From Escherichia coli (GTDB taxonomy: Bacteria; Pseudomonadota; Gammaproteobacteria; Enterobacterales; Enterobacteriaceae): a DNA stretch of 64,000 nt. The stretch is from the NCBI RefSeq assembly GCF_013315695.1, contig NZ_CP054353.1; one strand, 5' to 3'. The translations under genes were made by a program, and so were the position numbers. This document shows, piece by piece, positions 4,149 through 47,757 of this stretch. The notes beneath the pieces were generated by a model. It made no database searches and had not been told where the DNA came from. It saw only the letters and a program-made list of their open reading frames with translations. Within the stretch, counting starts at the first letter, position 1. The number at the start of each line of letters is the position of its first letter.

Positions 4149-5129
4149 ATGAAAAAGATACCTTTAGGCACAACGGATATTACGCTTTCGCGAATGGGGT
4201 TGGGGACATGGGCCATTGGCGGCGGTCCTGCATGGAATGGCGATCTCGATCGGCAAATATGTATTGATACGATTCTTGAAGCCCATCGTTGTGGCATTAA
4301 TCTGATTGATACTGCGCCAGGATATAACTTTGGCAATAGTGAAGTTATCGTCGGTCAGGCGTTAAAAAAACTGCCCCGTGAACAGGTTGTAGTAGAAACC
4401 AAATGCGGCATTGTCTGGGAACGAAAAGGGAGTTTATTCAACAAAGTTGGCGATCGGCAGTTGTATAAAAACCTTTCCCCGGAATCTATCCGCGAAGAGG
4501 TAGAAGCCAGCTTGCAACGTCTGGGTATTGATTACATCGATATCTACATGACGCACTGGCAGTCGGTGCCGCCATTTTTTACGCCGATAGCTGAAACCGT
4601 CGCAGTGCTCAATGAGTTAAAGGCCGAAGGAAAAATTCGCGCTATAGGCGCTGCTAACGTCGATGCTGACCATATCCGCGAGTATCTGCAATATGGTGAA
4701 CTGGATATTATTCAGGCGAAATACAGTATCCTCGACCGGGCATTGGAAAGCGAACTGCTGCCGCTATGTCGTGATAATGGCATTGTGGTACAGGTTTATT
4801 CCCCGCTAGAGCAGGGATTGTTGACCGGTACCATCACTCGTGATTACGTTCCGGGCGGCGCTCGGGCAAATAAAGTCTGGTTCCAGCGTGAAAACATGCT
4901 GAAAGTGATTGATATGCTTGAACAGTGGCAGCCACTCTGTGCTCGTTATCAGTGCACAATTCCCACTCTGGCACTGGCGTGGATATTAAAACAGAGTGAT
5001 TTAATCTCCATTCTTAGTGGGGCTACTGCACCGGAACAGGTACGCGAAAATGTCGCGGCATTGAATATCAACTTATCGGATGCAGACGCAACATTGATGA
5101 GGGAAATGGCAGAGGCCCTGGAGCGTTAA
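4149..5129 (+). CDS. ydjG: aldo-keto reductase (NADH/NADPH-dependent)
   Basis: 326-aa ORF with AKR-family features (IDTAPGY); follows ydjH as in E. coli. Confidence 0.9.
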   Translation: MKKIPLGTTDITLSRMGLGTWAIGGGPAWNGDLDRQICIDTILEAHRCGINLIDTAPGYNFGNSEVIVGQALKKLPREQVVVETKCGIVWERKGSLFNKVGDRQLYKNLSPESIREEVEASLQRLGIDYIDIYMTHWQSVPPFFTPIAETVAVLNELKAEGKIRAIGAANVDADHIREYLQYGELDIIQAKYSILDRALESELLPLCRDNGIVVQVYSPLEQGLLTGTITRDYVPGGARANKVWFQRENMLKVIDMLEQWQPLCARYQCTIPTLALAWILKQSDLISILSGATAPEQVRENVAALNINLSDADATLMREMAEALER

Positions 5130-5265
5130 ATACTCAACACGATTCACCTCTGTTTCTGTGAAAACTGTGATGAAAATCTGTGATTCAAACAGGTTATTTT
5201 GAAAGTAAACATCAATTATGCGATAATCGCGCTAATGTGATGTAAAAAGATACAGGGGTGTAATC

Positions 5266-6024
5266 GTGGCGGCAAAAGACAGGATTCAGGCAATTAAGCA
5301 AATGGTTGCCAACGATAAAAAGGTGACAGTCTCAAATTTGAGTGGGATTTTTCAGGTAACCGAAGAAACCATTCGCCGCGATCTTGAGAAGCTGGAAGAT
5401 GAAGGCTTTTTGACCAGAACCTATGGTGGTGCTGTTTTAAATACAGCGATGTTGACGGAGAATATCCATTTTTATAAGCGCGCTTCATCGTTTTATGAAG
5501 AGAAGCAGCTTATTGCACGCAAGGCATTACCCTTTATCGACAATAAAACCACCATGGCAGTCGATTCCAGTAGTACCGTAATGGAATTGCTCAAATTGTT
5601 ACAGGACCGTAGTGACCTGACGTTGCTAACCAACTCGGCGGAAGCGATTCATGTTCTGGCTCAGTCAGAAATTAAAGTCGTTTCAACGGGTGGGGAACTA
5701 AACAAAAATACACTTTCCCTGCAAGGAAGAATTACTAAAGAGATCATCAGCCGCTACCATGTCGATATTATGGTAATGAGTTGTAAAGGTCTTGATATTA
5801 ACAGCGGCGCGCTGGACTCTAACGAAGCGGAAGCTGAAATCAAAAAGACAATGATCCGTCAGGCGACAGAAGTTGCGTTATTGGTTGATCACTCTAAGTT
5901 TGATCGCAAAGCTTTTGTCCAGTTAGCTGACTTTAGTCATATTAATTACATAATAACTGATAAATCACCGGGTGCAGAGTGGATAGCATTTTGCAAAGAC
6001 AATAATATCCAGCTGGTGTGGTAA
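5266..6024 (+). CDS. ydjF: DeoR-family transcriptional regulator
   Basis: 252-aa ORF with an N-terminal HTH (TVSNLSGIFQVTEETIRRDLEKLE) and a C-terminal DeoR sugar-binding domain. Confidence 0.9.
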   Translation: MAAKDRIQAIKQMVANDKKVTVSNLSGIFQVTEETIRRDLEKLEDEGFLTRTYGGAVLNTAMLTENIHFYKRASSFYEEKQLIARKALPFIDNKTTMAVDSSSTVMELLKLLQDRSDLTLLTNSAEAIHVLAQSEIKVVSTGGELNKNTLSLQGRITKEIISRYHVDIMVMSCKGLDINSGALDSNEAEAEIKKTMIRQATEVALLVDHSKFDRKAFVQLADFSHINYIITDKSPGAEWIAFCKDNNIQLVW

Positions 6025-6140
6025 TTTAAGCACACGTTGTCAATATTATTTGTTCCTGCGCCTGGAAATAAAATGATGATAAAGATGCGGCAAGTGAATT
6101 TGCCGCAATTGCTACCTTTTTAGCAAATCCGAGGCACCTA

Positions 6141-7499
6141 ATGGAACAATATGACCAAATTGGCGCAAGACTGGACCGCTTGCCTTTGGCCCGGTTTCAT
6201 TATCGTATATTTGGTATTATAAGCTTTAGTCTGTTATTAACGGGTTTTTTGAGTTATTCAGGCAATGTTGTTTTAGCAAAGCTGGTAAGCAATGGATGGT
6301 CAAATAATTTTCTCAATGCCGCCTTTACCTCGGCATTAATGTTTGGTTATTTCATCGGCTCTCTTACCGGTGGGTTTATTGGTGACTACTTTGGGCGGCG
6401 CAGGGCTTTTCGCATAAATCTTCTCATCGTCGGTATTGCGGCAACAGGGGCCGCTTTTGTCCCTGATATGTACTGGCTCATCTTCTTTCGCTTCCTGATG
6501 GGAACAGGAATGGGGGCGCTGATTATGGTTGGCTATGCCTCATTTACGGAGTTTATCCCCGCGACGGTGCGTGGAAAATGGTCCGCGCGGCTCTCATTTG
6601 TCGGTAACTGGTCGCCCATGTTGTCTGCGGCGATAGGCGTGGTGGTTATCGCTTTTTTTAGTTGGCGGATAATGTTTCTGCTGGGTGGTATTGGCATACT
6701 GTTAGCCTGGTTTCTCTCAGGTAAATACTTTATTGAGTCGCCTCGATGGTTGGCGGGGAAAGGACAAATCGCAGGTGCAGAAAGCCAACTTCGTGAAGTA
6801 GAGCAGCAAATTGAAAGAGAGAAGAGTGTTCGTTTACCCCCGCTTACTTTGAATCAGAGCAACAGCAAGGCTAACATAATCAATGGTACTTTCTGGCTGC
6901 TGTTTAAAGGGGAAATGTTACGACGTACATTAGTCGCGATTACTGTTTTAATTGCAATGAACATTTCACTTTATACCATCACCGTATGGATACCGACCAT
7001 ATTTGTTAACTCCGGCATTGATGTTGATAAATCAATATTAATGACCGCTGTTATTATGATTGGCGCTCCGGTAGGGATATTTATTGCGGCATTAATTATT
7101 GATCATTTTCCTCGTCGATTATTTGGCTCTGCCTTACTTATTATTATTGCTGTGTTAGGCTATATCTATTCAATTCAAACTACAGAGTGGGCGGTTTTAA
7201 TCTATGGCCTGGTGATGATCTTCTTTTTATACATGTATGTGTGCTTCGCGTCGGCGGTTTATATCCCGGAACTTTGGCCAACGCATTTACGCCTGCGTGG
7301 TTCGGGTTTCGTTAATGCCGTCGGACGGATCGTCGCAGTCTTCACGCCCTATGGCGTTGCGGCACTATTAACGCATTATGGGTCAATCACGGTGTTTATG
7401 GTGCTTGGCGTGATGTTAGTGCTCTGTGCGCTGGTTCTCTCCATTTTTGGCATCGAAACGCGGAAGGTGTCGCTGGAAGAGATTTCTGAGGTGAATTAA
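6141..7499 (+). CDS. ydjE: MFS-family transporter
   Basis: 452-aa multi-helix ORF, paralogous in sequence to ydjK (GDYFGRRRAF / PESPRWL motifs). Confidence 0.9.
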   Translation: MEQYDQIGARLDRLPLARFHYRIFGIISFSLLLTGFLSYSGNVVLAKLVSNGWSNNFLNAAFTSALMFGYFIGSLTGGFIGDYFGRRRAFRINLLIVGIAATGAAFVPDMYWLIFFRFLMGTGMGALIMVGYASFTEFIPATVRGKWSARLSFVGNWSPMLSAAIGVVVIAFFSWRIMFLLGGIGILLAWFLSGKYFIESPRWLAGKGQIAGAESQLREVEQQIEREKSVRLPPLTLNQSNSKANIINGTFWLLFKGEMLRRTLVAITVLIAMNISLYTITVWIPTIFVNSGIDVDKSILMTAVIMIGAPVGIFIAALIIDHFPRRLFGSALLIIIAVLGYIYSIQTTEWAVLIYGLVMIFFLYMYVCFASAVYIPELWPTHLRLRGSGFVNAVGRIVAVFTPYGVAALLTHYGSITVFMVLGVMLVLCALVLSIFGIETRKVSLEEISEVN

Positions 7500-36645: not shown

Positions 36646-36984
36646 ATGAACAAGAATATGGCAGGAATTCTGAGTGCAGCGGCGGTATTAACCATGCTGG
36701 CGGGTTGTACGGCTTATGATCGTACCAAAGACCAGTTTGTACAGCCTGTGGTGAAAGACGTCAAAAAAGGCATGAGCCGGGCGCAGGTTGCACAAATTGC
36801 GGGTAAACCTTCGTCTGAAGTGAGCATGATTCATGCTCGTGGTACTTGCCAGACCTACATCCTGGGTCAACGTGATGGTAAAGCAGAAACCTACTTTGTC
36901 GCGTTAGATGATACCGGACATGTCATCAACTCCGGTTATCAGACCTGTGCTGAATACGACACTGATCCACAGGCTGCGAAGTAA
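36646..36984 (+). CDS. osmE: osmotically inducible lipoprotein E
   Basis: 112-aa ORF with lipoprotein signal (LAGC). Confidence 0.9.
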
Positions 36985-37282
36985 TCACTTCGCCTGAAAG
37001 CTTGAGTTACAACGGAAACCGGCCATTGCGCCGGTTTTTTTTGGCCTGAGTTCTTAATTATCTTCGCGAATTATTTGCCCGAAATGTGAAGAGGGTCATA
37101 ACCGCAGGTCAAGGAGAGACAATTTATAAGGTCAAAGAAATACTATTGCTCAGGTCTATACCGTATACTCCTTTCAGCCACAAAAAAAGTCATGTTGGTT
37201 TCGCAAGTTACCCAGAGCATGGAAGCAGGTTAAGGCTTGCGGAGTGTCTGGCTTACAGATAATCGTCGATGAGGGCAGTTTT

Positions 37283-37603
37283 ATGGAAAAGAAACACATT
37301 TATCTGTTTTGTTCTGCGGGCATGTCTACCTCTTTACTGGTATCAAAAATGCGCGCACAGGCAGAAAAATATGAAGTTCCGGTCATTATTGAAGCATTTC
37401 CGGAAACACTGGCTGGTGAAAAAGGTCAGAATGCCGATGTCGTGTTATTAGGGCCGCAGATTGCTTATATGTTGCCCGAAATCCAGCGTTTGTTACCCAA
37501 CAAACCGGTCGAAGTAATTGACTCGCTGCTTTATGGCAAAGTCGATGGTTTAGGCGTGCTTAAGGCTGCGGTTGCAGCGATTAAAAAAGCCGCAGCAAAT
37601 TAA
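37283..37603 (+). CDS. chbB: PTS chitobiose-specific IIB component
   Basis: ORF trimmed to [17 protein letters not shown] (106 aa) with the phosphorylated-Cys loop. Confidence 0.9.
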
Positions 37604-37687
37604 TTTATTTTAAATTTTCCCGTCAAAGAGTTATTTCATAAATCAATACCGCAATATTTAAATTGCGGTTTTTAAGGGTATTTTTCT

Positions 37688-39046
37688 ATGAGTAATGTTA
37701 TTGCATCGCTTGAAAAGGTACTCCTCCCTTTTGCAGTTAAAATAGGAAAGCAGCCACACGTTAATGCAATCAAAAATGGCTTTATTCGCTTAATGCCGTT
37801 AACCCTTGCGGGGGCCATGTTTGTATTAATTAACAACGTTTTTCTAAGCTTTGGGGAGGGGTCGTTTTTTTATTCCTTAGGTATTCGCCTGGATGCCTCA
37901 ACCATTGAAACACTTAATGGTCTGAAAGGTATTGGCGGTAACGTATATAACGGAACATTAGGGATAATGTCTTTAATGGCACCGTTCTTTATTGGCATGG
38001 CGCTGGCAGAAGAGCGTAAAGTCGATGCGCTGGCGGCCGGGTTGTTATCCGTTGCAGCATTTATGACCGTCACCCCATATAGTGTCGGTGAGGCCTATGC
38101 GGTTGGCGCAAACTGGTTAGGTGGGGCGAATATCATCTCCGGGATTATTATTGGCCTGGTGGTGGCAGAAATGTTTACCTTTATTGTCCGCCGCAATTGG
38201 GTCATTAAATTGCCCGATAGCGTACCTGCTTCAGTATCGCGTTCCTTCTCGGCTTTAATTCCCGGCTTTATTATTCTTTCCGTGATGGGGATTATTGCCT
38301 GGGCGTTGAATACCTGGGGCACCAACTTCCATCAGATCATCATGGATACCATCTCAACCCCACTGGCATCGTTGGGTAGCGTGGTGGGCTGGGCCTATGT
38401 GATCTTTGTTCCACTGCTCTGGTTCTTCGGTATTCATGGCGCGCTGGCGCTGACCGCACTGGACAACGGCATTATGACGCCGTGGGCGCTGGAAAATATC
38501 GCGACCTATCAGCAATATGGTTCCGTCGAAGCGGCGCTGGCAGCCGGTAAGACCTTCCATATCTGGGCCAAGCCGATGCTGGACTCCTTTATTTTCCTCG
38601 GTGGCAGTGGTGCGACTTTGGGTCTGATCCTGGCTATCTTTATCGCCTCTCGCCGTGCTGATTATCGTCAGGTGGCAAAACTGGCGCTGCCGTCCGGCAT
38701 CTTCCAGATTAACGAACCGATTCTGTTTGGTCTGCCAATTATCATGAACCCGGTGATGTTTATCCCGTTTGTACTGGTACAACCGATTCTGGCGGCAATC
38801 ACCCTGGCAGCGTACTACATGGGCATTATTCCTCCGGTGACCAATATTGCACCGTGGACCATGCCAACCGGTCTGGGAGCCTTCTTTAACACCAACGGTA
38901 GCGTCGCCGCATTGCTGGTCGCACTCTTCAACCTTGGTATCGCAACGTTAATTTATCTGCCCTTTGTTGTGGTCGCTAACAAAGCACAAAACGCGATTGA
39001 TAAAGAAGAGAGCGAAGAAGATATCGCTAACGCCCTGAAATTTTAA
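37688..39046 (+). CDS. chbC: PTS chitobiose-specific IIC permease
   Basis: 452-aa polytopic lactose/cellobiose-family EIIC ORF. Confidence 0.93.
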
Positions 39047-39096: not shown

Positions 39097-39447
39097 ATGA
39101 TGGATCTCGATAACATTCCCGATACGCAAACAGAAGCTGAAGAGCTGGAAGAAGTGGTGATGGGGCTTATCATCAACTCCGGGCAAGCGCGCAGCCTGGC
39201 GTATGCGGCACTGAAACAGGCGAAGCAGGGCGATTTTGCCGCAGCAAAAGCCATGATGGATCAGTCACGGATGGCATTGAATGAAGCGCATCTGGTACAG
39301 ACGAAACTGATTGAAGGCGATGCGGGCGAAGGTAAGATGAAAGTGAGTCTGGTGCTGGTCCACGCTCAGGATCATTTAATGACGTCCATGCTTGCGCGTG
39401 AACTGATTACTGAATTAATTGAGCTTCATGAAAAACTGAAGGCATAA
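39097..39447 (+). CDS. chbA: PTS chitobiose-specific IIA component
   Basis: 116-aa helical EIIA(Lac/Cel) ORF. Confidence 0.92.
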
Positions 39448-39454
39448 GGAGTCG

Positions 39455-40297
39455 ATGATGCAGCCAGTGATTAACGCGCCGGAAATTGCCACTGCCCGAG
39501 AACAGCAGTTGTTTAATGGCAAAAACTTCCATGTGTTTATCTACAACAAAACTGAGAGTATCAGCGGACTGCATCAGCACGACTATTATGAATTTACTCT
39601 GGTATTGACCGGGCGTTATTTCCAGGAGATTAACGGTAAGCGCGTGTTACTGGAACGGGGCGATTTTGTTTTTATTCCGTTAGGTTCGCACCATCAAAGT
39701 TTTTATGAGTTTGGTGCCACGCGCATATTGAACGTTGGGATCAGTAAACGCTTTTTTGAGCAGCATTACCTGCCGTTGTTGCCTTATTGCTTTGTAGCTT
39801 CGCAGGTATACCGGACCAATAACGCTTTTCTCACCTATGTGGAAACAGTGATTTCTTCATTGAATTTCCGCGAAACAGGGCTGGAAGAGTTTGTTGAGAT
39901 GGTTACTTTTTATGTCATTAACCGTTTACGTCATTACCGCGAAGAACAGGTGATTGATGATGTACCGCAGTGGCTGAAAAGTACGGTAGAAAAGATGCAT
40001 GATAAAGAGCAGTTTAGTGAATCGGCACTGGAGAATATGGTGACGTTGTCAGCCAAATCACAGGAATATTTGACGCGAGCGACTCAACGATATTATGGCA
40101 AAACGCCAATGCAGATTATTAATGAAATCCGTATTAATTTTGCCAAAAAACAACTGGAAATGACCAACTATTCAGTGACGGATATTGCGTTTGAGGCCGG
40201 TTATAGTAGCCCGAGTTTGTTTATTAAAACGTTTAAGAAATTAACGTCCTTTACGCCTAAGAGCTATCGTAAGAAATTGACTGAATTTAATCAGTAA
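39455..40297 (+). CDS. chbR: AraC-family dual regulator of the chb operon
   Basis: 280-aa ORF with a C-terminal AraC-type HTH. Confidence 0.9.
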
Positions 40298-40401
40298 GTC
40301 GTTATACCTGACAATTCACATATCTGTCCTGTTGCTGGATTATTTATGTCCGGGGGGGCAGATATGCCAGATATCAGTATTCTGTACTGAAGGGAGAAAT
40401 T

Positions 40402-41754
40402 ATGAGCCAGAAATTAAAAGTCGTCACTATTGGTGGCGGGAGCAGCTATACCCCGGAGTTACTGGAAGGATTTATTAAGCGTTATCACGAATTGCCGGTC
40501 AGCGAATTATGGCTGGTGGATGTCGAAGATGGTAAAGAGAAACTGGATATTATTTTTGATCTCTGCCAACGGATGATTGATAACGCTGGCGTCCCGATGA
40601 AGCTTTATAAAACGCTGGATCGCCGCGAAGCATTGAAAGATGCTGATTTCGTTACTACCCAACTGCGCGTAGGCCAATTACCGGCGCGCGAACTGGATGA
40701 ACGTATTCCATTAAGTCATGGTTATCTTGGTCAGGAAACTAACGGCGCGGGCGGTCTGTTTAAAGGTCTGCGTACCATTCCGGTGATTTTTGACATCGTA
40801 AAAGATGTCGAAGAACTTTGTCCGAATGCATGGGTGATTAACTTCACTAACCCGGCGGGAATGGTCACTGAAGCCGTTTATCGTCATACCGGATTTAAAC
40901 GCTTTATCGGCGTGTGTAATATTCCGATCGGCATGAAGATGTTTATTCGCGATGTTCTGATGCTGAAAGACAGCGATGATTTATCTATCGATCTGTTCGG
41001 CCTCAACCATATGGTGTTCATTAAAGATGTGCTGGTAAATGGCAAATCACGCTTTGCCGAATTGCTTGATGGTGTGGCATCCGGGCAGTTAAAAGCATCT
41101 GGCGTTAAAAATATTTTCGATCTGCCATTTAGCGAAGGCTTAATTCGTTCTCTGAATCTGTTGCCGTGTTCTTATTTGCTTTATTACTTCAAGCAAAAAG
41201 AGATGCTGGCTATTGAAATGGGCGAATACTACAAAGGCGGCGCACGAGCGCAGGTAGTACAGAAAGTCGAGAAACAACTTTTTGAGCTGTATAAAAACCC
41301 GGAGTTGAAAGTTAAGCCGAAAGAACTGGAACAGCGCGGTGGGGCTTATTACTCTGATGCTGCGTGCGAAGTGATCAACGCTATCTACAACGACAAGCAA
41401 GCTGAACATTACGTTAATATCCCGCATCATGGGCATATTGATAATATTCCGGCAGACTGGGCGGTAGAAATGACCTGTACGCTGGGGCGCGATGGCGCGA
41501 CGCCACATCCGCGCATTACGCATTTCGATGATAAAGTGATGGGGCTGATTCACACCATTAAAGGCTTCGAGATTGCTGCCAGCAACGCCGCACTTAGCGG
41601 AGAGTTTAACGATGTGTTACTGGCCCTAAACCTTAGTCCGTTGGTGCATTCCGATCGCGATGCTGAGCTGCTGGCACGCGAGATGATTCTGGCGCACGAG
41701 AAATGGTTGCCAAATTTTGCCGACTGCATCGCAGAGCTTAAAAAAGCACATTAA
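40402..41754 (+). CDS. chbF: family-4 glycosidase, NAD/Mn-dependent 6-phospho-beta-glucosidase
   Basis: 450-aa ORF with N-terminal Rossmann motif (VVTIGGGSSYTPEL). Confidence 0.93.
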   Translation: MSQKLKVVTIGGGSSYTPELLEGFIKRYHELPVSELWLVDVEDGKEKLDIIFDLCQRMIDNAGVPMKLYKTLDRREALKDADFVTTQLRVGQLPARELDERIPLSHGYLGQETNGAGGLFKGLRTIPVIFDIVKDVEELCPNAWVINFTNPAGMVTEAVYRHTGFKRFIGVCNIPIGMKMFIRDVLMLKDSDDLSIDLFGLNHMVFIKDVLVNGKSRFAELLDGVASGQLKASGVKNIFDLPFSEGLIRSLNLLPCSYLLYYFKQKEMLAIEMGEYYKGGARAQVVQKVEKQLFELYKNPELKVKPKELEQRGGAYYSDAACEVINAIYNDKQAEHYVNIPHHGHIDNIPADWAVEMTCTLGRDGATPHPRITHFDDKVMGLIHTIKGFEIAASNAALSGEFNDVLLALNLSPLVHSDRDAELLAREMILAHEKWLPNFADCIAELKKAH

Positions 41755-42562: not shown

Positions 42563-44824
42563 TTACGCCGGAATTTTGTCAATCTTAGGAATGCGTGACC
42601 ACACGCGGTGTGCTGCCATCAGCGTTAACAGTTCATCCATAAAACTACCATCGGCGCTGTCAGCTTCCACAATCCCTTCTTCACCCTGATCAGCGACCTT
42701 GATTCTTACTTTAAACTTGCGCGCGTCTCCTGCCAGCGCAATCGGTTTAAGGTGTTTGTAGGCTTCCATCAGGTAGTAGTTGGCATCGCCGTTGTCAGCG
42801 ATATCCGCGATATTGCCGCAAGGGACAATAACCGCATCGACCGTCAGCGAAGGCGCTCCGGCAAATGTAGCGGCTATAGGCAGCACCGTACCGTCATCCG
42901 CAGTCACTTCACCCATTCGGGAGTAGAGCAGTTTGGCATGAACGCCTTTGGCCTTCAGCGCCTTGAGAATGGCCAGAAGGTCTGCCGATCTCACTTCATC
43001 ATTAAGTAAAATCGCTACCACGCGACCTTTCACATCACCGTCAGGAATGGCGTACAAACTTAAGGATGGATCCTTTTTCAGACCGTTGACGTCCGGAGGC
43101 GGGGTGATATTCAGCTGGTCGTCCGTCAGCTCGATACCGAGATTTTTCGCCACCGCCTGGGCCAGAGTGAGATCAATATGTGCCAGCTGGTCAACAACGC
43201 GCTCACGAATATACGGACGAACTACTTTGCTTAACTCAAAACTGAAACCATCGACAATATGGCGCTGCTCGAATGGCGTCTGACTTAGCCAGAACAGACG
43301 CGGATGGGAATAATATTCGCCAAACGATGGGCTGCGCTCGCGAACTTTATTGCCTTCCACGCGCTCCTGGTATGATTCAAAACCGCCGCGTTTCGGCCCC
43401 GGCGGTGTTTCGCGCGGCCAGTTATCGTTGATCGAGTTCGGTTCATAATTCGCCGGGTTAGTGTCGATCCCCATACGATGCATGCCGTCACGCTGGAAAT
43501 TATGGTAAGGGCAGGTCGGGCGGTTAATCGGAATCTCATGGAAATTTGGTCCGCCAAGACGACTGATTTGTGTATCGGTATAAGAGAACAAACGCCCCTG
43601 CAACAGCGGATCGTTGGTGAAGTCCAGACCAGGAACAATATGACCTGGATGGAATGCTGCTTGTTCGTTTTCGGCAAAGAAGTTATCCGGATTGCGATTG
43701 AGCACCATTTTGCCGACACGCTGAACGGGCACCAGTTCTTCCGGGATAAGTTTAGTTGGATCAAGAAGGTCGAAGTCGAACTTAAATTCATCTTCCTCAG
43801 GAATCAACTGGAAGCCCAGTTCGTATTCCGGAAAATCGCCGGCTTCAATCGCTTCCCACAACTCGCGGCGGTGGAAGTCCGGGTCACGTCCGGTTAGTTT
43901 TTGTGCTTCATCCCAAACGAGTGAGGCTTTACCTGCCAGTGGTTTCCAGTGGAAACGTACGAACGTTGCCTTCCCTTCGGCATTAATCAGGCGGAAGGTG
44001 TGAATACCGAAGCCTTCCATGGTGCGGTAACTGCGCGGGATACCGCGATCCGACATCGCCCACATCACGTTGTGCAGAGTTTCAGGTTGCAGAGAAACAT
44101 AATCCCAGAAAGTATCGTGGGCGCTTTGCCCTTGTGGAATTGCCCAGTGTGGTTCTGGTTTTACCGCATGCACAAAATCAGGGAATTTATGCGCATCCTG
44201 GATAAAGAAGATTGGCGTGTTATTGCCAACAAGGTCAAAAATACCCTCTTCGGTATAGAACTTGGTGGCAAAGCCACGGATATCACGCACGGTATCGGCA
44301 GAGCCAGCACCACCCTGAACGGTAGAGAAACGTACAAATACTGGGGTGATTTTGTTCGGATCTGAGAGGAAATCCGCTTTGGTAATATCGCTTAAGCTTT
44401 TATATGGCTGGAAATAACCGTGAGCGGCTGATCCGCGTGCATGAACAATACGTTCCGGGATGCGCTCATGGTCAAAGTGGGTGATTTTCTCGCGCAGAAT
44501 AAAATCTTCCAGCAGCGTTGGACCACGGTTACCGGCACGCAGTGAGTTTTGATCGTCGGCGATGCGCACGCCCTGATTAGTGGTCAGCGCATAATTTTCA
44601 CTGCCTTTGCGTACGTCTTCCAGAGAATTAAGTTTTTCGTTACGCGTATCAGGGGCTTTCAGGCTCCCAGGGGCGGTAGGTTGTGCACCTGGCGGTGTTG
44701 GTTCAGCCGCTGGACGATGAGATCCGTCTTCAGGTGCCAGTGAGTCCATCCCCGGTTTCGCTTCGCTGGAATCGTGTAGTGGTGACTGGTGCTGATGTGG
44801 GTTCTTTTCGTTATGTTGCGACAT
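42563..44824 (-). CDS. katE: catalase HPII (large-subunit monofunctional catalase)
   Basis: 753-aa ORF with catalase core and C-terminal flavodoxin-like domain. Confidence 0.95.
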
Positions 44825-45027
44825 TGAACTCGTCTCCTTAAATTATTACTGAAAGGGCCGCTGTTTTGGTCAAAAAACCCTCTAACTATAGACCACCAGT
44901 CAGATCCCGCTTCGGAGACTATTCTGGAAACGGTGTTATGAAATACACGCAAAGCAGGACGTACAGGGGCTAAATCGGCTAAACTACAGTTTTTCTGATT
45001 TTTAATATGCGTTTAGTGAAGCCAGTA

Positions 45028-45270
45028 ATGAAGAAACCGCTCCGTCAGCAAAACCGCCAGATTATTAGCTATGTCCCACGCACGGAACCCGCGCCGCCAG
45101 AACATGCGATAAAGATGGATTCGTTTCGTGATGTCTGGATGCTGCGTGGCAAATATGTTGCGTTTGTACTGATGGGGGAGTCATTTATGCGCTCACCGGC
45201 GTTTACTGTGCCTGAATCCGCCCAGCGTTGGGCAAATCAGATCCGCCAGGAAGGGGAAGTGACTGAGTAA
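45028..45270 (+). CDS. cedA: cell-division modulator CedA
   Basis: ORF 45007..45270 trimmed to MKKPLRQQNRQ (80 aa). Confidence 0.85.
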   Translation: MKKPLRQQNRQIISYVPRTEPAPPEHAIKMDSFRDVWMLRGKYVAFVLMGESFMRSPAFTVPESAQRWANQIRQEGEVTE

Positions 45271-45558
45271 AGATTACGTACCTCCCGGTTTTGCCGGGAG
45301 TTACATGGCCTGAAATTTTGTATTTCATTGCTACATTCATTCAAACCACCTGTAACAAAAAGCTGCCTTTGACGATCTATTGCTATAAATAAGTGAACTT
45401 TTTTCTTTAATTGTTTATTTATTTTAAAATGGTTAAGTTTTGCTAATCATGATGAGCTATTTTTGATAGTTCATCCTGTGGCGTCGCTCTTAAACTTATA
45501 TTGTAAATGACTTAGATTTAAATGAGATAATAATTTTGTTAACAATATGAGGCGGGAG

Positions 45559-46362
45559 ATGCTTTCTACAAACTTAATACAGAGTAATTATGGTGATTTA
45601 AATATTAAAAGCCTGGCTTTCGACTCTTTTAAAGAAAGGCTGCAGTCTACTATGACAGCACTCACTTTCTTTATATCAACGGGTCAATGTGACTGCGATG
45701 AAATAGCAGAATCAAACTTTAATTATATGATTGCCTATATGTCTAACATTAACTATGATGCCTCAAAGCCAGGAGCGCCAGCACTTAGTTTTGATACATA
45801 TCTGCAGGACAATGTTAAATATAGAGTAATAATTAATAATCTTTATGGTAGTGAAATTCGGATAAGGGGTATAAATAAGGATTTTATTGGAATGGATGTC
45901 ACTTCTGTATTTCGCCCAGAAAAAATGACCAATTTGATCAATATAAAAAACAGGTTGGTTATTCACTATTTAAGGACTATATACTATGAACAAAATTATA
46001 TACATCCTGTCGGGAGCATTTTTGCTGCGATTCAAAAAAATGAGAGTCTCCTAAAGTTTCCTTCGATAATATCAATGCTTAATATCAGTCTTCTTTTTAA
46101 TCCACTAAATCTTCCGCGAATGGGAAATGGTGTGCTTGAAGATATTATGAGTATTCCAGATAGTTCACTTAGAAAACGTCTCGGGTATGAGGTTTTAAGC
46201 TTCTCGCTACAGGCACATTCATTGAGCCAGGAATGTATTGATAAGTTGGCCATTTTTTTCGCTGACGATCTGTTTCAATATGAGTCAGTATGCATCGCCG
46301 CGATGGAACATTTAAAAAGTAAGGCAACGGCTCCTATACAAAACGGACCGTTGCCAGCATAA
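45559..46362 (+). CDS. ydjO: protein of unknown function
   Basis: ORF 45547..46362 trimmed to MLSTNLIQ; AT-rich coding sequence with an AT-rich upstream region. Confidence 0.75.
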   Translation: MLSTNLIQSNYGDLNIKSLAFDSFKERLQSTMTALTFFISTGQCDCDEIAESNFNYMIAYMSNINYDASKPGAPALSFDTYLQDNVKYRVIINNLYGSEIRIRGINKDFIGMDVTSVFRPEKMTNLINIKNRLVIHYLRTIYYEQNYIHPVGSIFAAIQKNESLLKFPSIISMLNISLLFNPLNLPRMGNGVLEDIMSIPDSSLRKRLGYEVLSFSLQAHSLSQECIDKLAIFFADDLFQYESVCIAAMEHLKSKATAPIQNGPLPA

Positions 46363-46365
46363 GAA

Positions 46366-47757
46366 TTAACGGTGTGCCAGTTCGGCGTCGTCTTCGCTAT
46401 CCAGAATGGCTTTATCGGTTTGCTTCAGCCACTGGCTGGTCAGCGTGCCAGCGGTCATCGAGCCACTAACGTTTAGCGCCGTACGCCCCATGTCGATAAG
46501 CGGTTCAACGGAGATTAACAATGCCACCAGCGTTACAGGCAGGCCCATCGCAGGCAGCACAATCAGTGCGGCGAAAGTTGCACCACCACCGACACCGGCA
46601 ACGCCTGCGGAACTAACGGTAACAATACCGACCAGCGTCGCAATCCACATCGGGTCCATCGGGTTAATGCCAACCGTAGGCGCAACCATCACCGCCAGCA
46701 TCGCCGGATACAAACCGGCACAGCCGTTCTGACCAATGGTTGCACCGAAAGAGGCGGCGAAACTGGCGATGGATTCAGGAACGCCCAGACGACGCGTTTG
46801 TGCTTCCACATTCAGTGGGATAGACGCAGCACTGGAACGGCTGGTAAAAGCAAACGTCAGAACTGGCCATACCTTACGGAAGTATTTCAGCGGGCTCACG
46901 CCATTAATGCCCAGCAGAAGGCCATGCACTGCAAACATAATCAGCAGACCGAGGTAGGACGCGACAACGAAACTTCCCAGTTTGATGATGTCTTGCAGGT
47001 TAGAACCTGCAACCACTTTGGTCATCAGCGCCAGAACGCCGTAAGGGGTCAGCTGCATGACCAGGCGAACCAGTTTCATCACCCAGCTTTGCAGGGTATC
47101 GATAGCGGTTAAGACGCGTTCACCTTTCGGCGCATCATCCTTCAGCAGCTTGAGCGCAGCTACGCCGAGGAATGCGGCAAAAATTACCACGCTGATAATT
47201 GACGTCGGATTGGCTCCGGTCAAATCGGCAAACGGGTTTTTCGGGATAAAGGACAAGACCAGCTGCGGAACGCTCAGGTCAGAGACTTTACCAACATAGT
47301 TACTTTCAATGGCGTTCAGACGTGCAGTTTCTGCACCACCCTGAACCAGACCTTCAGCCGTCAAACCAAACAGGTTGGTGACCAGCACACCGACCAGCGC
47401 CGCAATCAGCGTGGTAAACAAAAGCGTACCGATGGTCAGAAAACTAATTTTGCCTAACTGAGATGCGTTATGCAGACGGGCAACCGCGCTCAGAATAGAG
47501 GCGAAGACTAACGGCATAACGATCATTTGCAGCAGTTGAACATAGCCGTTACCAACAATGTTAAACCACTGTACAGAATCTTTAAGTACCTGGCTGTCAG
47601 AACCATAAATGGTATGCAGGGCGAGGCCAAAAACCACACCCATCACCAGACCCACCAGCACTTTTTTCGCCAGACTCCACTGTTTATGGCGGGTCTGAGC
47701 CAGCGCAAACAGCAGTACAACGAACACCACGATGTTCGCAATTAATGGAAAGTTCAT
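46366..47757 (-). CDS. tcyP: L-cystine/dicarboxylate:cation symporter (DAACS family)
   Basis: 463-aa polytopic ORF; sequence and position match E. coli ydjN/tcyP. Confidence 0.92.

Follow-up and report, generated by a model that had tools for sequence, protein, structure and literature searches.

The closest described systems to the locus analyzed here are the H-NS-bound promoter islands of Escherichia coli K-12, which are AT-rich, use atypical codons and have a narrow taxonomic range (PMC3661553), and the E. coli/Shigella "conserved signature proteins" YahL, YdjO and YjfZ (PMC11057252). The spacer between ydjO and cedA is itself listed as promoter island 1811053_320; it was bound by H-NS in the ChIP-chip data of Kahramanoglou and of Oshima and was predicted to be foreign by two methods (PMC3661553), and both an H-NS SELEX site and an RpoD promoter have been reported within it (PMC3946193). 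The ydjO segment is AT-rich, atypical in its codons and narrowly distributed in the same way as the promoter islands, but it differs from them in comprising a single gene, in having no mobility genes and in showing no excess of promoter sites in a simple scan, and neither IslandViewer nor GIST flags it in the table of PMC3661553. YdjO likewise departs from the description of a signature protein (PMC11057252): it is not universal, given that 1126-1127 of 5426 complete E. coli genomes lack ydjO; its family is not exclusive to E. coli and Shigella, given a relative with 32% identity in E. albertii; and it has no sequence similarity to its fellow signature proteins YahL and YjfZ. A third point of comparison is the ancestral cedA/tcyP terminator of the Enterobacteriaceae, a single hairpin of 46-70 bp that has a U tract on each strand (tcyP strand: z = -5.3) and occupies the same position between the convergent genes as the ydjO segment with its end hairpins.

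The window analyzed here is a stretch of E. coli DNA of 64,000 nucleotides (assembly GCF_013315695.1, contig NZ_CP054353.1) that carries, in order, katE (42563-44824, - strand), cedA (45007-45270, +), ydjO (45559-46362, +), tcyP (46366-47757, -) and ydjM; these names and this order agree with the RefSeq annotation of an identical strain. A sequence-only reading had singled out positions 45271-46362 as an AT-rich islet, typical of horizontally acquired DNA silenced by H-NS. We assign a probability of about 0.8 to the interpretation that the islet, which is confined to Escherichia, goes back to an old insertion of one gene into the space between the convergent cedA and tcyP, and that it is bound by H-NS and furnished with replacement terminators. 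The AT-richness, H-NS binding and E. coli restriction of ydjO (b1730) are already published, and a literature search on b1730 returned unrelated papers only. As foreign-looking DNA, the islet is an ordinary, known case of small discovery value. New here are its absence from 21% of complete genomes, its exact boundaries, its apparent takeover of a terminator, the E. albertii orthologue of ydjO and the deep ydjO alleles under purifying selection.

Base composition and codon usage

The segment 45271-46362 is identical to that of strain MSB1_4I and 98.6% identical to K-12 derivatives, in which ydjO is b1730. Its GC content of 34.6% (30.8% in the spacer 45271-45546 and 35.9% in the ydjO coding sequence) compares with 49.7% for the window and with 51.9%, 52.9% and 51.6% for the flanking genes cedA, tcyP and katE. 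No 1092-bp stretch within the 64 kb is lower (mean over all such stretches 0.497, sd 0.046); it lies about 3.3 sd under the mean, and 0.1% of the stretches are equally low. GC3 is 0.33 in ydjO, whereas the flanking genes have 0.52-0.58. When the 27 longest ORFs of the window serve as the reference set, the codon adaptation index of ydjO is 0.557, below that of every reference ORF (mean 0.708, sd 0.049, minimum 0.589). The codons ATA (44.9 versus 5.8 per 1000 codons) and AGG (15.0 versus 0.9) are over-used 8- to 16-fold in ydjO, and the density of TpA in the islet is twice the window average. The low GC content and odd codon usage of this segment are far outside chance. The sequence-only reading had named GC content and codon usage as the properties on which its proposal could fail; both differ strongly from the flanks and the window, and together with GC3 they bear out its description of ydjO and the upstream spacer as more AT-rich than their surroundings. 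The long A/T runs that it reported upstream of ydjO held up in part: the homopolymers are modest, the longest being T6 at 45399, but the stretch 45399-45431 is nearly all A+T.

The second-lowest GC stretch of the window, at about 53693-55591 on the - strand and about 37% GC, is espL1, which is annotated as type III secretion effector EspL1 and is named arpB in K-12. Sequence related to espL1 occurs in 5420 of 5426 complete genomes and is full length in 4328. Other dips in GC content, to about 41-42% over 1.1 kb, lie at about 4961-6400, 36881-38000 and 39331-40600 of the window.

Boundaries of the islet and the cedA/tcyP junction

Comparison with the empty allele by megablast showed that homology ends at nucleotide 246 of cedA, which corresponds to window position 45252, and restarts one base outside the tcyP stop codon. 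The interval proposed from the sequence alone therefore needs a small correction at its left edge, which is at 45253, within the last 18 nt of cedA, rather than at 45271.

45253-46365, no strand assigned: whole islet, 1113 bp (megablast break points against the empty allele, alignments, GC profile)
45253-45270, + strand: islet-type cedA 3' end, GGG GAA GTG ACT GAG TAA, with CedA ending in QEGEVTE before the stop

Islet-free genomes have instead about 63 bp of ancestral sequence, made up of six cedA codons and a 46-bp terminator gap. The ancestral CedA C-terminus is QENEVEE, as opposed to the islet type QEGEVTE, and this allele is common to E. coli Nissle, E. whittamii and three further Escherichia lineages; the CedA proteins of Citrobacter and Salmonella also have QENE-type ends, and CedA of islet-bearing E. 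albertii ends in QEGEVAE. The cedA/tcyP gap of Nissle (EcN_Sk) measures 46 bp and aligns with the gaps of other Escherichia lineages, with which it has in common the strong bidirectional hairpin of the compact junction, AAAAACRCCTGTCGGGATGACAGGCGTTTT. The compact junction is identified as ancestral by the terminator and CedA end that Nissle and other Escherichia have in common and by the QENE-type ends in Citrobacter and Salmonella.

The wider distribution of the junction was surveyed in 45 cedA loci, drawn from the bacterial collection with a single genome for each species. Convergent cedA and tcyP without ydjO were found in Citrobacter, Salmonella, Enterobacter, Kluyvera, Leclercia, Phytobacter and others, and the compact junction without ydjO also in E. 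whittamii and three unnamed Escherichia lineages. The ydjO-free gaps span 50-110 bp in nearly all loci, with four longer ones of up to 357 bp; over islet-free genomes in general, the spacing of cedA and tcyP around the shared terminator is 46-110 bp. Since the compact junction is present in every non-Escherichia genus sampled, in several Escherichia lineages and in 21% of E. coli, the islet is the derived state, and the alignments show that it replaced both the shared bidirectional cedA/tcyP terminator and the last six codons of cedA. The Nissle-type allele served as the empty-site reference in place of strains HH97 (L001 4050-4170) and HH45 (L065 ~430-585). These two genomes, both from one study, were rejected as empty sites, their gap being a C-rich low-complexity filler at the place of ydjO that is probably a consensus artefact.

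The direction of change away from the compact junction of the outgroups supports the earlier proposal of horizontal acquisition, so that a horizontal origin is suggested by composition and distribution taken together. A search for a donor found no homologue among phages or plasmids, nor any homologous protein outside Escherichia, and a search for a mobility signature at the islet found no integrase, tRNA, IS element or terminal repeat. The absence of such a signature would also be expected if ydjO had arisen within Escherichia, either de novo or as an extremely diverged native gene whose AT-richness reflects relaxed selection. That origin would further agree with the frequent pseudogenisation of ydjO and with a family that has no homologue beyond E. 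coli/Shigella and E. albertii (see also PMC11057252). We nevertheless regard it as improbable. The outgroups lack the entire 1.1 kb, so that there is no non-coding precursor at the locus, and a search for homologous non-coding sequence at the syntenic outgroup sites was negative; in addition, a frame of 267 codons is very unlikely to be open by chance in DNA of 35% GC, and both species have full-length versions under constraint. Given the mutational bias of E. coli, relaxed selection does not lower the GC content to 15 points under that of the genome on such a time scale, and the deficit of the islet is accordingly too large for this explanation.

In the insertion model preferred here, the islet landed between cedA and tcyP and carries ydjO with its own promoter, and its ends would have supplied replacement terminators, with one hairpin after cedA and another, serving tcyP, in the last 13 codons of ydjO.

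45278-45304, + strand: GC-rich hairpin after cedA, with core CCUCCCGG-UUUUG-CCGGGAG (RNA fold)
46323-46355, - strand: hairpin in the last 13 ydjO codons, then UUACUUUUU at 46310-46322 (RNA fold)

The hairpin after cedA has a predicted energy of -20.1 kcal/mol for a 63-nt segment (z = -3.3) and no U tail, and is a candidate for the replacement terminator of cedA; in E. albertii a different hairpin is found at this position. The hairpin at the right end has an energy of -18.7 kcal/mol with a z-score of only -1.35, and in E. coli it failed a strict terminator scan, its predicted loop being 10 nt and the limit of the scanner 3-8. At the corresponding position of the E. albertii-like gene (L056 5496-5523) there is also a terminator-like hairpin, in which some of the bases differ. 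The 3' region is moreover the best-conserved part of ydjO, and the hairpin is kept in a deletion remnant of the gene (L004). We infer that the right end of the islet now terminates tcyP in place of the lost ancestral terminator, although it would do so from within coding sequence, unlike the ancestral element. If so, the locus neatly illustrates how an inserted gene can assume the role of the terminator it destroyed, and this takeover may explain why the 3' end of ydjO is conserved and survives.

The stop codons of ydjO and tcyP lie tail to tail, 3 bp apart (46360-46368), and expression data for ydjO that are not strand-specific are for this reason likely to be contaminated by read-through from tcyP. 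In RNA-seq of ExPEC in serum, the signals of ydjO and ydjN (tcyP) drop together with the CysB regulon (PMC4145685), an apparent co-regulation of ydjO that fits read-through from tcyP.

Hairpins at both ends of the islet, and a 3' end that is best conserved and persists in a deletion remnant, would equally be seen if the ydjO frame were incidental and the segment mattered as DNA, providing terminators and an H-NS-coated spacer. This we hold to be very improbable, since dN/dS is 0.15-0.28 over the whole frame, the variable 5' part included, since 257-267 codons are open in two species at 32% identity, and since the ancestral terminator fills the same role in a mere 46 bp.

Alleles, distribution and decay of ydjO

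45559-46362, + strand: ydjO coding sequence, 267 aa plus stop (ORF list, RefSeq annotation of the identical strain, K-12 b1730)

The ydjO start codon is preceded by a Shine-Dalgarno sequence, GAGG, at 45549-45552; an alternative upstream ATG at 45547 is not kept in the divergent allele. At the base composition of the islet, one codon in 14 is expected to be a stop; a run of 271 open codons has a probability of 1.3e-9, and none of 2000 shuffles gave an open frame longer than 212 codons, as against 278 observed. Among six intact alleles, all 15 pairs have a dN/dS of 0.15-0.28. These ratios, the chance of about 1e-9 for the ORF and the intact relative at the same site in E. albertii together indicate that ydjO is a real gene, evidently under moderate purifying selection. 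A variant that is rare in E. coli, P0005, has 76% protein identity to the window allele. Between the two, dS is 0.65 and dN 0.165 over codons 1-190, and dS is only 0.11 over codons 191-267, with dS values in the flanks of 0.02 for cedA, 0.08 for tcyP and 0.16 for katE. This pattern of divergence is best read as a recombination mosaic, with no signature of positive selection.

The E. albertii relative of ydjO occupies the same site. The contig of the type strain stops inside the gene, and the full gene, of 257 aa and 33% GC, was recovered on a 205-kb contig that is 99% identical to the type strain, where it stands between a cedA whose product ends in QEGEVAE and tcyP. The encoded protein shows 32-33% identity to both E. 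coli alleles (E = 2e-36) and corresponds to a cluster whose 125 member sequences carry the name E. albertii. CedA is 91% and TcyP about 98-99% identical between the two species, compared with 32% for YdjO, and dN is 0.67 for YdjO and 0.012-0.035 for the flanks; the YdjO protein has evolved 20-50 times faster than its neighbours. Because E. albertii has the islet too, the event that created the islet must be old. Its occurrence in E. albertii as well as in E. coli, when lineages between the two have the ancestral empty allele, calls for recombination among Escherichia or for a polymorphism that has persisted for a long time. Genomes of the E. albertii type have no katE, and in them chbG lies directly upstream of cedA (L056 3326-4598; L006).

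Within E. coli, islet sequence was detected in 4300 of the 5426 complete genomes, nearly full length in 4239 of them, and the compact allele was detected in one piece in 1127 (21%); together the two classes account for approximately all 5426 genomes. Among the strains with the compact allele are Nissle, O25:H4 and O2:K2:H1 strains, which we take to be members of phylogroup B2. Strain CE10 has ydjO.

Where it is present, ydjO is dispensable and often decays, by deletion as well as by frameshift.

45370-45387, + strand: direct repeat D1, left copy, beginning with TGACGATCT (repeat search; L004 junction sequence)
46263-46280, + strand: direct repeat D1, right copy (repeat search; L004 junction)
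45920-45925, + strand: A6 run in ydjO (repeat scan, I2)
46034-46040, + strand: A7 run in ydjO, at which the common truncated products end (repeat scan, I13)

In Escherichia sp. MOD1-EC7003 only the ends of the islet are left, joined across the imperfect direct repeat TGACGATCT, and tblastn recovers only residues 236-267 of YdjO, a remnant that is accounted for by recombination between the two copies of D1. In strain P276M the first two thirds of ydjO, from the 5' end, are missing, and what is left is an N-terminally deleted pseudogene. Eight E. coli alleles were checked for their frame, of which two are frameshifted and one stops seven codons early. In two sampled genomes, whose annotation records a frameshift and an internal stop in the gene, the frame stops at codon 119, and both have an extra A8 run. 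The truncated products that end at the A7 run terminate in IQKK or IQKMRVS, and the truncated clusters comprise 2273 member sequences (P0012) and 149 (P0011); part of the homopolymer frameshifts may be assembly errors.

Upstream spacer, YdjO protein and use as a marker

45507-45534, + strand: sigma-70 promoter-like site, ATGACT-16-AATAAT (consensus scan; RpoD-holoenzyme SELEX, PMC3946193)
45451-45471, + strand: 21-nt box GATGAGCTATTTTTGATAGTT, containing the palindrome CTAT-N5-ATAG (local alignment, k-mer comparison)

The promoter-like site was found independently by a consensus scan, and identical hexamers have been described as the "constitutive promoter" of ydjO in an in vitro genomic SELEX with RpoD holoenzyme (PMC3946193). 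The association of the islet with H-NS, which had been proposed from base composition, agrees with published ChIP-chip (PMC3661553) and SELEX data (PMC3946193). Silencing of ydjO by H-NS is putative, and the article texts covered document no derepression of ydjO in hns mutants. A scan for the 10-bp high-affinity H-NS motif TCGATAAATT found three sites with two mismatches in the islet, which is about the window average and thus no enrichment. The islet contains 4 promoter-like sites, compared with 4.7 expected from shuffles, according to a simple sigma-70 scan whose method differs from that of PMC3661553.

The 21-nt box is identical in the spacers of E. coli and of the E. albertii-like contig (L056 4661-4681), the remainder of which barely align, and 20 of its 21 nt are kept in the divergent E. 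coli allele. It is unique in the window, lies about 90-110 nt upstream of the ydjO start codon and, going by this conservation, is the best candidate for a regulator-binding site. In the proposed mechanism, H-NS filaments would hold the sigma-70 promoter at 45507-45534 mostly off in laboratory conditions, and the box at 45451-45471 would be the site of action of a counter-silencing regulator.

The YdjO protein had been described from its sequence as having no recognisable motif, and remote homology search and structure prediction had been suggested for it; the former statement holds and the latter gave no assignment. Searches of Pfam, NCBIfam, PADLOC, PHROGs and PDB sequences gave no match to YdjO; with two YdjO alleles as queries, the PADLOC and PHROG profiles returned zero families at E <= 1, and Pfam likewise returned none at that threshold. 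No relatives beyond E. coli/Shigella and E. albertii were found among 5.8 billion clustered proteins or 1.84 billion representatives, the library of representatives being incomplete for this family, as the exhaustive search missed the E. albertii relative. A tblastn search of phages with YdjO gave no match, and three apparent plasmid matches were discarded, the records being of 4.8-4.9 Mb and thus chromosome-sized.

Other candidate relationships were examined and rejected. P0033, which at 26% identity and E = 2e-37 resembled a distant homologue (Logan SRR33321306, L049), is a purine-interchanged copy of the cedA-ydjO-tcyP locus, in which 479 A>G and 347 G>A differences from the true locus yield a "protein" of 299 aa; it is an artefact of sequencing chemistry or assembly and a potential trap in homology searches. 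Paralogy with YahL and YjfZ (DUF2686), signature proteins of similar length, was dismissed on BLASTP values of E = 2.2 for YjfZ and E = 54 for YahL, and the sole Rfam match, snoRNA-like at E = 0.13, is attributable to chance.

Two structure predictions for YdjO agree in secondary structure, with helices at residues 15-41 and 48-59, five strands within 62-118, a helix at 124-139 and a helical C-terminal half, although the models are of low confidence (pLDDT 58 and 49.5). Fold searches produced no credible match. YdjO is accordingly predicted to be a soluble two-part protein, and our best guess for its role is that of a niche-specific accessory rather than a housekeeping protein. As a constrained orphan with only three sequence clusters, YdjO is a tractable case in which to ask what lineage-restricted genes do.

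One way to refine the function of the inserted gene is to consider ydjO a conflict gene, acting either as a single-gene anti-phage or abortive-infection system or as a type III secretion substrate or partner, with presence/absence and diverged alleles maintained by balancing or frequency-dependent selection. Such a role would suit a single-gene, AT-rich, H-NS-bound unit with presence/absence polymorphism. It would also suit the depth of the alleles within the species (dS 0.65 versus 0.02-0.16 in the flanks) and the 32% identity of YdjO to its E. albertii counterpart, where CedA retains 91% and TcyP about 98-99%. Ser, Thr, Asn, Ile and Gln are abundant in the N-termini of YdjO, which have no acidic residues in the first 12 positions and in these respects may resemble those of many type III substrates; the type III effector gene espL1 is 7 kb away. 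An N-terminus rich in Asn, Ile and Ser is, however, expected of any AT-rich gene, and an intact ydjO is found in K-12, a strain that lacks a functional type III system. There is no PADLOC or PHROG match and no match to an enzymatic or effector domain or fold, all dN/dS values are under 0.3, and the variable part of the gene is raised in dS as well, which points to a recombination mosaic. We therefore consider the conflict role unlikely. Its more specific form, in which YdjO is an Escherichia-only family with an unseen fold, its presence/absence and its old alleles are kept by balancing selection in a conflict such as phage defence or antagonism towards a host or other bacteria, and the 21-nt box is a switch that releases the gene from H-NS, is somewhat less likely again.

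The distribution of the islet bears on the use of ydjO as a marker. For water testing, ydjO has been put forward as a qPCR marker universal to E. coli (PMC11057252), with an amplicon that corresponds to positions 46201-46299 of the window. About one in five complete genomes, including those of Nissle 1917-type and O25:H4 strains, lack this target. The ydjO marker showed a lower detection rate (93%) and a weaker correlation with colony counts (PMC11057252), and both fit the existence of genomes without the target.
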